Source: a virus. Taken from it: a stretch of 64,000 nucleotides of DNA. Where the stretch lies: positions 13,255 through 77,254 of the IMG/VR virus record IMGVR_UViG_3300045941_000223; one strand, given 5' to 3'. Position 1 is the first letter of the stretch, and every line of letters starts with the position of its first letter. Under the pieces are notes generated by a model. That model was not told the origin of the DNA. It saw nothing but the letters and a program-made list of their open reading frames with translations, and ran no database searches. Shown here one piece after another: positions 1,291-59,298 of this stretch. The translations under genes were made by a program, and so were the position numbers.

Positions 1291-1319
1291 ATATAGGGCG
1301 TAATGGCCTACATTTCAAG
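1291..1319 (-). promoter_or_regulatory. Repeated sigma70-type promoter with embedded operator (copy 1)
   Basis: Minus strand CTTGAA-N17-CTATAT; the spacer and -10 contain TAGGCCATTACGCCCTA. Confidence 0.85.
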
Positions 1320-1577
1320 ATGCCGCTCGTAATCCATCCTCGCCACGTCTTCCGGCGAATGCTTCTTGCGCACCATCAGCCGCAGCAGCATGGCGGTGGC
1401 GCGCGGGATCGGGGCCTCGCCCAGCGCCCAGCGCCGCGACGTGCGCGGGCCGACGCCGATGAACCTGCCCGCCTGAACTTGATTCAGGTCGAGCGCGTCG
1501 ATCGCTTCTCGGTACTGTTCTTTGGTCATGACGCGCTTCGCGGTCTTCTTCTTGGTAGCGGTCTTGCGCTTGGCCAT
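1308..1577 (-). CDS. XRE/Cro-like HTH regulator, candidate repressor of the repeated operator
   Basis: LDLNQVQAGRFIGVGPRTSRRWALGEAPIP has an HTH pattern; its own upstream region has an operator copy. Confidence 0.75.
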   Translation of the reverse strand: MAKRKTATKKKTAKRVMTKEQYREAIDALDLNQVQAGRFIGVGPRTSRRWALGEAPIPRATAMLLRLMVRKKHSPEDVARMDYERHLEM

Positions 1578-1601
1578 GGGAACCTCCGCATCTGCGGCAA
1601 C

Positions 1602-1630
1602 TCCTAGGACGTAATGGCCTAGCTCGCAAG
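1602..1630 (-). promoter_or_regulatory. Repeated promoter/operator (copy 2, weak -10) upstream of the HTH gene
   Basis: CTTGCG-N17-CTAGGA with TAGGCCATTACGTCCTA. Confidence 0.75.
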
Positions 1631-2224
1631 AGCCTGCTCAGGGTTGTGAACACATCGCCGGACGAGTTCCTGATGCAAGAGATCGGACATATCCCAGCTC
1701 CCGCCGTTGATCCGGCGATCGGTCGCTCGGTCGATGTAGGGGCCGAACCCGCTGGAATGCAGCAGCTTGAACTCGGCAGGGTTAACGCCGTGCCTGCGGC
1801 AGGCGGCCTCGAACGCCCGGCGGCCGAACTCTTCGGAGTACTTCCGGTCGGTAAATACATAGTCGGAGCCGAACCGGACCTTCTCGGCCCTGAACGAAGG
1901 CTGCAGCTCCGATCGGGACTCGACCATGCCCATGGAACTCGCGGTGCCCTTGGTCTCGGCGAACGTCGCCGAACCGTCCGGCATCAGCCATGCGTACTTC
2001 GAGTACTTCAGGTCGATCATGCCGTCGAAGCCGCCACCGGCGTAAGCGTTGGTGACCGCCTCGACCATCTTGGTGGTCGGGCCGTCCGTCCAGCCGACTC
2101 GGATCGAGGCTCCACCGGAGTAGGTGTGCGATCGGACCGAGAATTTGACGCCCGGGAATGCCTTCTTCAGGGCGACCCGGATCAGCTTGGCAGTCTCGGC
2201 GCAGCTCAGGTAGCGGGTAGTCAT
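1619..2224 (-). CDS. LPD29 (large polyvalent protein-associated domain 29) protein
   Basis: AETAKLIRVALKKAFPGVKFSVRS...SIRVGWTDGPT...FDGMID signature; start re-called at MTTRY. Confidence 0.75.
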   Translation of the reverse strand: MTTRYLSCAETAKLIRVALKKAFPGVKFSVRSHTYSGGASIRVGWTDGPTTKMVEAVTNAYAGGGFDGMIDLKYSKYAWLMPDGSATFAETKGTASSMGMVESRSELQPSFRAEKVRFGSDYVFTDRKYSEEFGRRAFEAACRRHGVNPAEFKLLHSSGFGPYIDRATDRRINGGSWDMSDLLHQELVRRCVHNPEQALAS

Positions 2225-2406
2225 TTCGTTCCTTTCGTCATGGTGAAGGGATAGGCCAGCGCGGTCAGGTAACCGTCGCGGGCAGCGAGGATGGCAGCAC
2301 CAGCATCGGTTATGTCGAGAGCGCAGGCATCGCACCGCTCGATCGCTTCGCGGCCATCGGCTCGCTCGACAATCAGGTAGCGCTTGTCGTGGCAGGTATC
2401 GCACAT
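2221..2406 (-). CDS. small CxxC...CxxC protein
   Basis: MCDTCHDK...ERCDAC; overlaps the next gene. Confidence 0.55.
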   Translation of the reverse strand: MCDTCHDKRYLIVERADGREAIERCDACALDITDAGAAILAARDGYLTALAYPFTMTKGTK

Positions 2407-2420
2407 CAGATGATCTCCCT

Positions 2421-2639
2421 TCACTCTTCGTTCGCGCCCCAATCGCAGCCGTGCTCTTTCGCCTTCTTGGCGGCGAAGCGATCGGCGGCGCGGCGGGCTT
2501 CGGCGTAGTCGCGGTAGGCGTCGCCCTCGACGCCCCACTCGAACTCGCCCTGATCGAAGATGTCGTTGCCTTCGTCGTCGAGCCCGTAGACGTGGATCTG
2601 GCGCTGCAGGCGGTTCACATCGACGTAGACATAGGTCAT
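2421..2639 (-). CDS. hypothetical protein
   Basis: MTYVYVDVNRL...; SD GAGGA. Confidence 0.6.
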   Translation of the reverse strand: MTYVYVDVNRLQRQIHVYGLDDEGNDIFDQGEFEWGVEGDAYRDYAEARRAADRFAAKKAKEHGCDWGANEE

Positions 2640-2653
2640 GTCAGTCCTCTCGC

Positions 2654-2815
2654 TTAAAACCGGATCTCGAAGTCGATCTCGCCGTTGCGTTCCGGCGTCT
2701 TCTCCGGAGGCGGCACCGGGATCGGGAGGTAGAGCGGCAGTCGCCGTTCCTCGAACTCGCGGTCTTCGCGCTCGCGGCGGCGGCGCAGCTCTTCGATCAT
2801 CCAACCGGGCAACAT
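2654..2815 (-). CDS. hypothetical protein
   Basis: MLPGWMIEELRRRRERE...; SD GGAGG. Confidence 0.5.
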   Translation of the reverse strand: MLPGWMIEELRRRREREDREFEERRLPLYLPIPVPPPEKTPERNGEIDFEIRF

Positions 2816-57272: not shown

Positions 57273-57542
57273 TCAGTACTGCGGCCAGCGCGCCTTGAAG
57301 CTGTCGGTCTTCGGCAGCTCGGTCTCGGCTGGTGGATCGTCCGGCTCGTCGCGCGCCCAATTGAACGGCGGCGTCGGCGGGTCCGGCCAGCGCAGCCGGT
57401 CCTTGGGCAGCTTGCGCCCCTTGTACCAGCAGCGGCGGCCGTCGATCGTGCGCCACGTCCAGCGCTCGCGCTCGGGCCCGGGATAATGCTCCCGGCAGTC
57501 GATGGTGGAGAGCTGGGCGACGACGATCAGGGTCTCGATCAT
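57273..57542 (-). CDS. small, possibly exported protein (C...WxWRxIDGRRCWY motif)
   Basis: MIETLIVVAQL...WTWRTIDGRRCWY. Confidence 0.55.
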   Translation of the reverse strand: MIETLIVVAQLSTIDCREHYPGPERERWTWRTIDGRRCWYKGRKLPKDRLRWPDPPTPPFNWARDEPDDPPAETELPKTDSFKARWPQY

Positions 57543-57832
57543 GTCGGCCGCTCCCGCTTCGGTCCGATCAGGTGGGTGCTCACCTGCATGATTGTGCAAA
57601 ACCTCGAATCGGCTTGCAGCGCATCCAGCTCTTCCTTGGTCGGCTTGCGCAGGTCGAGATCGGCAGTGAAGACCATCACGTGGCCGCAGCCAGCGCAGAT
57701 GGTGATGTCGCCGTCCTGCGGCCCGGTCACATCGGTCACGTTGGTCGCCTTGTCGAGATGCTTTCTGCACCACAGGCATTTGCGCGGCGGTGTGGCGTAG
57801 GTGTCCGGCACCGGGCCGACCTTCTTCAACAT
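57539..57832 (-). CDS. Zn-finger protein
   Basis: CLWC...PQDGDITICAGCG. Confidence 0.6.
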   Translation of the reverse strand: MLKKVGPVPDTYATPPRKCLWCRKHLDKATNVTDVTGPQDGDITICAGCGHVMVFTADLDLRKPTKEELDALQADSRFCTIMQVSTHLIGPKRERPT

Positions 57833-58275
57833 CACGCTCCCTCTGCGTACCGCTTGGCCGCCGGGTCGATTCGCTTGGCGCCGTGCGCGAGTGCTTGGCG
57901 GATCTTGCGCCGGACGTAGCGCTTGGCGCGGTGGGTCTCGACGCGCGGGACCGGGACGCCGTGCTCGCGCATTTTCGCGTGCGCCCATTGCTCGGCCTGC
58001 AGCTCGCGCACGTGGGCGGGCACGCGCTTCGAGCCGGGCCCATGGAGATAGATGTGCGCGCACTCATGCAGGAAGATGTAGAGCGCTCGCCGGGTGACCG
58101 GCCGCGGTGCGGCGATCATCTTCCTCTTCGGGTAATGTCGCCCGCTCAGGCTCTTGCGGTACTGGATCGCGTAGGTCGGCGGGACGTACTGCATCGCGAT
58201 TGCTGTGAACCGTTCCGCGGCGGCGCGACGCAGCGCTTGAAGTTCCGCCCCGGTCTTGGTAGAGAAGATTCGCAT
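57832..58275 (-). CDS. HExxH zinc metallopeptidase-like protein
   Basis: YIFLHECAHI...ELQAEQWA. Confidence 0.7.
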   Translation of the reverse strand: MRIFSTKTGAELQALRRAAAERFTAIAMQYVPPTYAIQYRKSLSGRHYPKRKMIAAPRPVTRRALYIFLHECAHIYLHGPGSKRVPAHVRELQAEQWAHAKMREHGVPVPRVETHRAKRYVRRKIRQALAHGAKRIDPAAKRYAEGA

Positions 58276-58345
58276 TGGCCTCTTCCTTCCTTCCATTCTG
58301 CCGCACCCCGGCCGCCGAGAAACCCTCCCGGCGGCCGGATCATTT

Positions 58346-58669
58346 TCAGGTCGTGATCTCGACGAAGTTCGCCAGCCTGTCCATCAGCTCGAACATCGAC
58401 TTGGTGTCCTTGTCCTTGTCGATGTTGCGATCGAGATAGATCGTGCGGCCGAACTCCACCATGGTCACCGTCTCGCCGGTCTTCATCACCGGCTTCCATC
58501 GGTAGCCGGTGAAGCCGTCGAGCACGAACTTCTCGGGATCTCCGAATTCATCGATCGAGATGCCGCAGGCGCTGGCGTCCCAATTGAATTGGAGATTGGA
58601 ACGGAACCCGGACTTGTTCCGGGTCTTGACGAACCGCTCCAGCTTCTTCAGTGTCAGTGTGTTGGTCAT
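58346..58669 (-). CDS. hypothetical protein
   Basis: MTNTLTLKKLERF... Confidence 0.55.
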   Translation of the reverse strand: MTNTLTLKKLERFVKTRNKSGFRSNLQFNWDASACGISIDEFGDPEKFVLDGFTGYRWKPVMKTGETVTMVEFGRTIYLDRNIDKDKDTKSMFELMDRLANFVEITT

Positions 58670-58728
58670 GTTTCGCCTAATGCTCCTTCGTGCGGCCCGG
58701 GGATTGGCCTCCCCGGGCCGTCTTGTTG

Positions 58729-58977
58729 TCAGGGTACGCAGACTTCGAACTTGCCGTCCGGCAGCACGGTGATTGACCCCGGCGAGCAGTAGCCGAAGTC
58801 GTAGCCGAGCGACTCTTTGATGACGGCGTTGTGCCGGGCCGCCTCTGCACACTCTTCCGCTTCCTTGCGGGTCTCGTAGATGTGCCAAGCGACCTTGCAG
58901 CCGCCACGGTACTTGTACTCGTTGGGATAGTGACGCCAGTCGAGCTTGCGCTTGCGCTTTGCTATGGCTTTCGCCAT
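58729..58977 (-). CDS. hypothetical protein
   Basis: Strong SD AAGGAGAGAAGG. Confidence 0.6.
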   Translation of the reverse strand: MAKAIAKRKRKLDWRHYPNEYKYRGGCKVAWHIYETRKEAEECAEAARHNAVIKESLGYDFGYCSPGSITVLPDGKFEVCVP

Positions 58978-59269
58978 GGCCTTCTCTCCTTCCTATTCAC
59001 AGTGTCAAACAACCCGGGCCGGTCTGGCCCGCGCGGTCTCTCACCCCGCACTACGAATATAATCATCGCGACTCCGGAGAATGCCGACTCGACCCGAGTC
59101 GGATACGAGAAGTGCCTGTGCCGCAGGCGTTTCCGCATTGCACTTCTACTTTTTGGTGCGATGGATGTAGGCCATATTGTCCGTCGATCGACGCGCCCGA
59201 TTGCGGAAGTGCCGATGCCATCGGCATTGCTGCACTGCACGACAAGTTGGACAAAGGTGGAACGGACTT

Positions 59270-59298
59270 TTCGACCTATAGGCCATTGCGCCCTCATT
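59270..59298 (+). promoter_or_regulatory. Degenerate plus-strand copy of the promoter/operator upstream of the Cys-peptide genes
   Basis: TTCGAC-N17-CTCATT containing TAGGCCATTGCGCCCTC (15/17 identical to the copy 1 operator). Confidence 0.6.

Follow-up and report, generated by a model that had tools for sequence, protein, structure and literature searches.

A palindrome embedded in dispersed early promoters of an uncultured soil phage and its candidate XRE-type repressor

Introduction

The last 64 kb (bases 13255–77254, hereafter the window) of the 77,254-bp IMG/VR record IMGVR_UViG_3300045941_000223, whose completeness is rated at 100%, carry a 17-bp palindrome that recurs inside the promoters of small early genes. 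The locus raises the question of which protein recognizes this palindrome and what its binding would do to the transcription of the genes behind it. Comparison with related viral contigs points to an operator built into eleven dispersed sigma70-type promoters and to an 89-amino acid (aa) helix-turn-helix (HTH) protein of the XRE type as its candidate repressor. Coordinates are those of the window unless record bases are mentioned, and the phage is designated G000 among the compared records.

The plus-strand genes of the window form the virion block (about 7795–42800), while its minus-strand genes, most of them tiny, constitute two early blocks (1062–7719 and 42820–63968). Portal and baseplate hub proteins are encoded in the window in addition to the structural proteins of Table 1; the gene coding the large terminase is outside the window, within the initial 13 kb of the record. 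The tail sheath, baseplate hub, integrase and xis-like genes assign the phage, by gene content, to the temperate myoviruses. It has no annotated cultured relative, because a megablast search with 22 kb of its sequence found nothing among cultured phages and the closest capsid protein (tblastn), that of a Rhizobium phage, is only 32% identical over 43% of the protein. The phage DNA recurs in many soil metagenomes and the host lineage is probably alphaproteobacterial.

A palindrome in the spacer of early promoters

The palindrome TAGGNC-N5-GNCCTA has 13 exact matches in the window versus 0.01 expected (100 dinucleotide shuffles). A fourteenth copy, at 7753, carries one mismatch, and the remaining 13 kb of the record have no copy. 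All 14 palindromes are on the minus strand, which is the strand of the genes behind them, and read TAGGCC-N5-G(C/G/A/T)CCTA. They are confined to gene boundaries of the two early-gene blocks, where they are dispersed across 56 kb at 11 promoters (Table 1), and none is found in the 37-kb virion block (7770 to 44823).

Eleven copies fill the spacer of promoters of the form CTTGnn-N16/17-CTATAT, while the other three adjoin or overlap the -35. The 6-N5-6 palindrome covers the spacer and the first two -10 bases, i.e., it is a dyad-symmetric site lying over the core promoter. In ten of the 11 copies, CTTG precedes the palindrome by 4–5 nt and CTATAT overlaps its right arm, the two hexamers being separated by N16–17. 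This matches the Sinorhizobium meliloti sigma70 consensus CTTGAC-N17-CTATAT (PMC2873474). The copy at 1605 has CCTAGGAG in place of CTATAT and its -10 is degraded to TAGGAG. The context common to the 11 copies can be written as (A)AAGCACCCCTTG-N4/5-palindrome-TAT-N5-(G)TG-GAGG...ATG. A position weight matrix of this 43-bp unit, derived from the 11 promoter copies, gives them 28–61 bits versus 2.7 bits or less at all other positions, which is the range of shuffled sequence; the lowest value (28 bits) belongs to the copy at 1605, which precedes the gene of the 89-aa HTH protein, versus 42–61 bits for the other ten. A generic promoter scan of the Escherichia coli type finds a single one of the 11 copies (unit 1) and misses the others because the -35 hexamers of this phage keep only CTTG.

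Three promoters feature a second palindrome. The upstream partners at 3098 and 6691 are exact and abut the proximal copy, so that the -35 lies in their centre and right arm (CTTGCC in unit 3), and the partner at 7753, the copy with one mismatch, stands 8 nt from its proximal palindrome and 26 nt upstream of the capsid start codon (7795).

The promoter-led units are packed in an extremely compact manner, without intrinsic terminators between them. A Shine-Dalgarno sequence of the GGAG type and a start codon are found 17–30 nt past the palindrome in 9 of the 11 units. At five positions (1308–1310, 1619–1621, 3112–3114, 6705–6707 and 50977–50979), the first TAG of a palindrome doubles as stop codon for the upstream gene, which in unit 1 is the HTH gene itself; the -35 and any upstream operator are therefore inside the 3' end of the preceding gene. 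A conserved TG (about 1.1 bits) is found 10–11 nt past the palindromes in G000 and in its relatives (e.g., at 1283–1284 and 5226–5227). Its location relative to a TATATn -10 suggests that it is the -1/+1 position and, if this predicted +1 holds, the leaders would be about 10–20 nt long and begin at the Shine-Dalgarno sequence. Assembled soil metatranscriptome contigs of the phage, of limited length and depth, include early as well as late genes and in some cases bridge the promoters; neither start sites nor an expression pattern emerge from them, and DNA carry-over is possible.

Only two isolated matches to the extended pattern CTTG-N4/5-TAGGCC-N5-GCCCTATA occur in 185,579 species-representative genomes, and it is therefore not a host-wide motif. 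Within the phage itself, the palindrome does not extend to all early genes: no copy is present at the approximately 17 minus-strand genes of region 57273–63968, upstream of the xis-int promoter, and a search for a second dispersed motif serving these genes found none.

The initial annotation of this stretch had described eleven minus-strand promoter copies, three of them with a second operator, and their absence from the virion block. The present analysis recovers each of these features, as well as the quoted rhizobial sigma70 consensus. Its coordinates designate the same eleven sites, although the palindromes start 3 nt higher than the numbers given there, because the TAT of the -10 had been included. 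The claim that most copies are followed by a strong Shine-Dalgarno sequence holds for the nine units mentioned above. The possibility that the motif is equally frequent in random host DNA is answered by the genome count, since the promoter pattern is essentially absent from species genomes. The proposed plus-strand promoter copy (59279–59295) is not retained: it has 11 of the 12 fixed bases of the palindrome, its promoter score is at background level (-3.3 bits), and about 0.3 palindromes with one mismatch are expected by chance on the record (estimate).

Two operator classes in related phages

Relatives were recovered by searching viral contigs with the motif and with a conserved 147-aa early protein; a search for related loci with the 261-aa LPD29 protein found none, and an alignment of eight HTH sequences proved too diverse to serve as seed for one. 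An exact-pattern scan of viral contigs yielded mostly single chance matches, with only L001, L011 and L013 being relatives. The capsid proteins of the relatives are 54–62% identical to that of G000, the sheath proteins up to 69%, and their proteins about 55–70% overall.

A total of 76 TAGG-N9-CCTA sites is found in 14 contigs (G000 counted), at the same promoter-spacer position. The consensus of the family is cTTGAC(A/G)TA, followed by TAGGCC-N5-GnCCTA and by TAT-N5-gTG, in a promoter frame TTGAC(A/G)-N17-TATATT. The palindrome thus fills the 17-bp spacer of near-consensus hexamers and supplies the first two -10 bases. Its arms are fixed in the relatives while the central five bases and the flanks differ, a pattern of variable centre and fixed arms that had been noticed in G000 alone and is now seen across the group. 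In most relatives, the same genes, coding the 147-aa, HD-domain and 144-aa proteins, directly follow the sites. Full records again show two clusters of sites flanking the virion block (e.g., 2297–12142 and 48200–52303 in G003).

Four contigs (L017, L018, L041 and L042) have no TAGG sites. They carry TACGnC-N5-GnCGTA, mostly TACGCC-N5-GGCGTA, in the same frame and before the same 147-aa gene. As read from the sites, the TACG class is a compensatory change in which both arms are altered together. In 18 contigs the palindrome keeps exactly the same register, to the base, with the -35 and the -10. Complementarity of the arms is complete at positions 1–4 by definition of the pattern (100% of sites), about 85% at position 6 and only 33–45% at position 5/13. 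The mismatches at position 5 fit a protein half-site TAGGnC better than a stem. No comparable palindrome family is found in L026/G006, L029/G007, L031/G008 and L039; two distant HTH paralogues encoded by G006 are uninformative.

Note that many relatives of the TAGG class have a different palindrome, TA(C/T)G(T/A)C-N5-GAC(A/G)TA, in the abutting upstream 17-mer, where it contains the consensus -35. Such sites are found in L021 (12074), L024 (5764), L027 (9648 and 11258), L028 (4121), L030 (4933 and 6240), L038 (1958) and G002 (25949 and 26604). They may be weaker sites of the same protein or sites of a second factor. G000 has a full TAGG-type upstream site instead, at the cost of a weaker -35.

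The promoter-led units are conserved among relatives and their order is permuted. The HD and 144-aa units adjoin the 147-aa unit in every relative, while in G000 they belong to the second early block, 37–44 kb away. The order of the genes coding the 190-aa and 147-aa proteins is inverted, and the 144-aa unit comes first in some relatives and behind the HD unit in others. This permuted order is consistent with exchange at the repeated promoter modules, as suggested when the repeats were first proposed to act as recombination points; no breakpoint could be mapped at the 45–65% protein identity found between relatives.

The 89-aa HTH protein as candidate repressor

No small early protein other than the 89-aa one encoded behind unit 2 shows broad conservation across the relatives. 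The profile matches of the 89-aa protein to the XRE-type HTH of MbcA, Aca2, MqsA and P22 c2 are weak, and it belongs by similarity to a PHROG family annotated as transcriptional regulator. An identical protein is encoded on 32 contigs, the longest of which has 96 kb. Its AlphaFold model is a five-helix XRE fold with a predicted local distance difference test (pLDDT) score of 85.7, in which the folded segment spans 73 residues from the second in-frame ATG and the recognition helix corresponds to residues 28–36 (PRTSRRWAL). The nearest folds belong to repressors that bind operators as dimers (HigA2, Aca2, MqsA, C-proteins and the P22 c2, 434 and lambda repressors), with template modelling (TM) scores of 0.65–0.75.

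Protein and operator vary together. Helix 3 reads R-T-(S/A)-R-R-W in nine TAGG contigs versus R-Q-A-Q-R-V in three TACG contigs, and new contigs found through each HTH type carried the palindrome class predicted from it. The HTH protein is 31–41% identical between classes and 48–89% within the TAGG class, ranges that do not overlap. The corresponding ranges do overlap for the capsid protein (53–68% and 56–87%) and for the 147-aa protein (46–70% and 55–88%). A class-matched palindrome precedes each HTH gene. Its left arm is usually degenerate; in G000 both arms are intact and it is the -10 that is weakened. Unit 2 is thus presumed to be autoregulated, and the presence of an own operator combined with a weakened -10 suggests negative autoregulation. 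The complete relatives G007 and G008 have neither palindrome nor HTH protein.

About 80 proteins, among them the products of essentially all open reading frames (ORFs) of the early blocks, were surveyed with Pfam or PHROG; this identified only two further DNA-binding proteins and no S24-domain or CI-type protein nor a divergent CI/Cro pair. The 103-aa HTH_3 protein (54304–54615) was rejected as binder of the palindrome: the complete relative G002 lacks it, and its helix 3 does not follow operator class, two TAGG-class phages having different versions and a TACG-class phage a similar one. The HTH_17 xis-like protein was also rejected, being found in none of five long relatives in a search that had no positive control.

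Proposed mechanism and its alternatives

Taken together, these features make it probable that the 89-aa protein represses a dispersed early-promoter regulon, xis-int included, through the palindrome. The operator of a phage-encoded dimeric repressor would be built into early promoters of the host sigma70 type. With the conserved G as +1, the proximal site would extend from about -27 to -11 and the upstream site from about -44 to -28; a bound dimer would exclude RNA polymerase, and at three promoters a second one could occupy the copy over the -35. The geometry is that expected of a repressor rather than of an activator because the site is within an optimal 17-bp spacer with good hexamers. The regulon would comprise 11 promoters and, behind them in the two blocks, about 60 genes, most of them tiny and of unknown function. 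The initial proposal of one repressor silencing these genes together is retained in part: a single operator in about a dozen early promoters, including that of xis-int, is supported by sequence comparison, while an anti-host role is not, the genes being mostly of unknown function. The regulon is also not genome-wide, because the genes of region 57273–63968 carry no copy.

Several observations weigh against this interpretation. The fold matches are weak by E-value (0.02 and above). Two contigs depart from the association of protein and palindrome: G009 has palindromes and no HTH match (the contig is 51% complete), and L039 has an HTH-like gene and no palindromes. The co-variation amounts to effectively a single evolutionary event because the TACG phages form one clade, in which any clade-specific protein would correlate with operator class. 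The protein is Cro-sized, has no sensor or cleavage domain and offers no apparent route of induction. Other early promoters precede its gene without intervening terminators, an arrangement that fits early shut-off equally well. Finally, judged by the E. coli standard, on which the consensus of the generic scan is based, the -35 hexamers are weak, and only one of 11 copies passes the scan.

The same operator and binder could serve a more transient function, in which the 89-aa protein is a negative-feedback or early shut-off factor, similar to Aca proteins, C-proteins or Cro, that damps eleven very strong early promoters. This alternative is a tenable, if less probable, one. The protein is small, without an oligomerization or cleavage domain, and has Aca2 and C-proteins among its closest folds; since its gene, in early orientation, ends an early block devoid of upstream terminators, early transcription would raise the HTH level automatically. 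Against a purely transient function stand the presence of xis-int under the same operator, the two discrete specificity classes that resemble immunity groups, and the finding of no other repressor candidate conserved in the family, all of which would fit maintenance of lysogeny. On balance there is a slight leaning towards the 89-aa protein being a repressor for prophage maintenance and immunity and not only an early shut-off factor.

It is unlikely that the palindrome is bound by another protein, either an unrecognized phage protein or a host factor, with the HTH co-variation being a by-product of clade divergence. The single TACG clade, which brings the effective sample size to about 2, and the majority of early proteins, which have no recognizable domain and could hide a novel DNA binder, leave room for this explanation. 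However, the HTH protein diverges disproportionately in comparison with the other common proteins, and the divergence affects helix 3 specifically; its gene is preceded by a class-matched operator, and it is the sole DNA-binding protein that co-occurs with the motif. A host factor would furthermore not explain a clade-specific change of both arms in identical sigma70 frames.

Even less probable is that the copies are merely duplicated strong promoters or activator sites whose palindromy has no separate repressive role. The flanks beyond the palindrome (AAAGCACCCCTTG and GTGGAGG) are common to the copies within this phage, which suggests duplication, but in the relatives flanks and centres differ around fixed arms, the sigma70 consensus does not include the arms, the centre of the site is near -19 within an optimal spacer between near-consensus hexamers, as a repressor site would be, and the promoter of the HTH gene keeps its operator despite the weakened -10.

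A nucleic-acid structure (a hairpin in read-through RNA acting as terminator, processing site or stabilizer, or a cruciform) would account for the joint alteration of both arms in the sister clade and would be included in read-through RNA of cassettes that have no other terminators, but it is the least probable explanation given that arm position 5, in the middle of the 6-bp stem, is mismatched in 55–67% of sites, that no U-tract follows the repeat, that the repeat precedes the predicted start of its own unit and that its promoter register is invariant.

Comparison with known repressor systems

Control of many dispersed operators by one repressor is a known design, proposed here for an undescribed phage lineage without cultured relative. 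Phage P1 has 22 C1 operators, which are 17 bp long and asymmetric (PMC8546580). As proposed for G000, one repressor acts in P1 at many scattered operators on separate lytic promoters, its own promoter included; unlike in P1, the sites of G000 are dyad-symmetric and are all in the same register inside the promoter spacer. The C1 protein of P1 is also much larger than the 89-aa protein, is unrelated to it, and has Coi, Lxc and an antisense RNA as partners. Partners of this kind were not seen here.

Phage phiC31 has a 17-bp conserved inverted repeat (CIR) at many early sites, bound by the phage repressor, and many near-identical early promoters. These promoters are not known to be sigma70-like, nor the CIRs to be part of the promoter spacer, and the repressor is a different, larger protein. 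The PeSL elements of T4-type phages and the CUP repeats of IncN plasmids, to which the repeats of G000 had initially been likened, are looser analogies than the P1 C1 operators or the phiC31 CIRs.

Cluster A mycobacteriophages (L5, Bxb1) have dozens of repressor sites per genome, the 13-bp asymmetric stoperators, that are oriented with transcription and whose motif diverges together with the repressor, as motif and candidate repressor do in the present phages (PMC6550527, PMC9283540). Stoperators are bound by a monomer, and elongation is reported to be terminated there (PMC9283540). The sites of G000 differ in being 17-bp palindromes inside promoters. Most stoperators lie away from promoters.

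In phages lambda, 434 and P22, dyad-symmetric operators of 14–18 bp are arranged in tandem over the -35 and -10 and are bound by XRE-type HTH dimers whose recognition helix sets specificity. G000 resembles these phages in the type of site and in the fold of the candidate binder, with matches to the P22 c2, 434 and lambda repressors: the dyad site lies over the core promoter and the candidate XRE-fold protein has a class-specific helix 3. The organization is distinct, since lambdoid phages concentrate their operators in two or three regions and encode CI and Cro as a divergent pair, whereas G000 has eleven dispersed promoters, one small HTH protein and tandem sites that abut without spacer. Aca2 and similar autorepressors are small phage XRE-type HTH proteins that repress strong early promoters by way of inverted repeats located there, as proposed for the 89-aa protein. 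Aca2 is among its best fold and sequence matches, although these are weak (TM 0.75, E about 0.02–0.04). Unlike the present system, Aca proteins control one acr operon, and no acr gene is recognizable among the genes neighbouring the 89-aa protein gene.

Annotated units and neighbouring genes

The promoter-operator units and the genes discussed above are listed in Table 1. No replication genes are recognizable in the early blocks within 1062–7719 and 42820–57007. Domain matches in the early blocks are limited to LPD29, DUF6927, DUF3768, DUF4236, HD_4 and MazG-like proteins, the remaining products being orphans.

Table 1. Promoter-operator units and other features of the window
Feature	Coordinates	Strand	Description
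Unit 1	1283..1319	minus	palindrome 1294-1310, -35 TTGAAA, -10 TATATT; heads 67-aa gene 1062-1265
89-aa XRE-type HTH gene	1308-1577	minus	candidate repressor; unit 2 at its head
Unit 2	1594..1630	minus	intact palindrome 1605-1621, weakened -10 TAGGAG; heads 89-aa HTH gene
Unit 3	3070..3114	minus	palindromes 3081-3097 and abutting 3098-3114; heads 81-aa gene 2815-3060
Unit 4	5226..5262	minus	palindrome 5237-5253; heads 265-aa gene 4420-5217
Unit 5	6663..6707	minus	palindromes 6674-6690 and abutting 6691-6707; heads conserved 147-aa gene 6150-6593
Unit 6	7717..7769	minus	perfect palindrome 7728-7744 and one-mismatch palindrome 7753-7769; divergent gap beside capsid gene
Capsid gene	7795-10050	plus	protease-major head fusion; virion block
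Tail sheath	16079-17689		virion block
Unit 7	44813..44848	minus	palindrome 44824-44840; heads short ORF, then HD-domain gene 44188-44754
Unit 8	48999..49035	minus	palindrome 49010-49026; heads 66-aa gene 48787-48987
Unit 9	50952..50988	minus	palindrome 50963-50979; heads conserved 144-aa gene 50499-50933
Unit 10	53271..53307	minus	palindrome 53282-53298; heads 193-aa gene 52670-53251
Tyrosine integrase	55734-56804	minus	preceded by xis-like gene
HTH_17 xis-like gene	56642-57007	minus	before integrase gene
Unit 11	57002..57038	minus	palindrome 57013-57029; heads xis-like gene and integrase gene
Doubtful palindrome	59279..59295	plus	11/12 fixed bases; intergenic, upstream of small secreted-peptide gene; no promoter match

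Two overlapping minus-strand genes (54304–55001) code for a 129-aa protein and for the 103-aa HTH_3 protein, which has a weak HigA-like match to addiction module antidotes. The pair, which is kept in G003 and lies downstream of the integrase gene, may constitute a toxin-antitoxin-like module. Further along the second early block, two paralogous small genes (59365–59497 and about 59540–59679; 94-nt repeat, 70% identical) code for Cys-rich mini-proteins bearing signal peptides and are followed by a strong terminator (59708–59727). They are the only clear plus-strand genes of this block. The 390-bp gap between them and the minus-strand gene of an 82-aa protein contains a 35-bp direct repeat, 74% identical, at 59109–59143 and 59206–59240; each of its copies has its own short palindrome and the repeat could be a separate regulatory site. 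At the opposite end, three large plus-strand proteins encoded by record bases 8145–14136 (up to position 882 of the window) have in common an N-proximal (H)PRDERGRWTD motif.

Significance for the phage lineage

The analysis annotates about 11 transcription units with predicted start sites and provides a testable candidate repressor-operator pair for a soil phage lineage without cultured member. The two operator classes would represent natural specificity variants, separated by a single base in each half-site and by a few residues of the helix. In its most far-reaching form, the model would have a single Cro-sized XRE repressor, without CI partner, govern the whole lysis-lysogeny decision through identical operator-in-spacer modules, with immunity specificity shifted by a single-base change in each half-site (TAGG to TACG) and about four changes in the recognition helix, and with the modules acting as portable cassette junctions between early arms; this extended version is speculative and rather doubtful as a whole. 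The compact sigma70 promoter modules, which are expected to be tightly repressible, could serve Rhizobiales genetics. Without changing an established concept, the regulon proposed here would be a further case in favour of dispersed single-repressor regulons being common in temperate phages.

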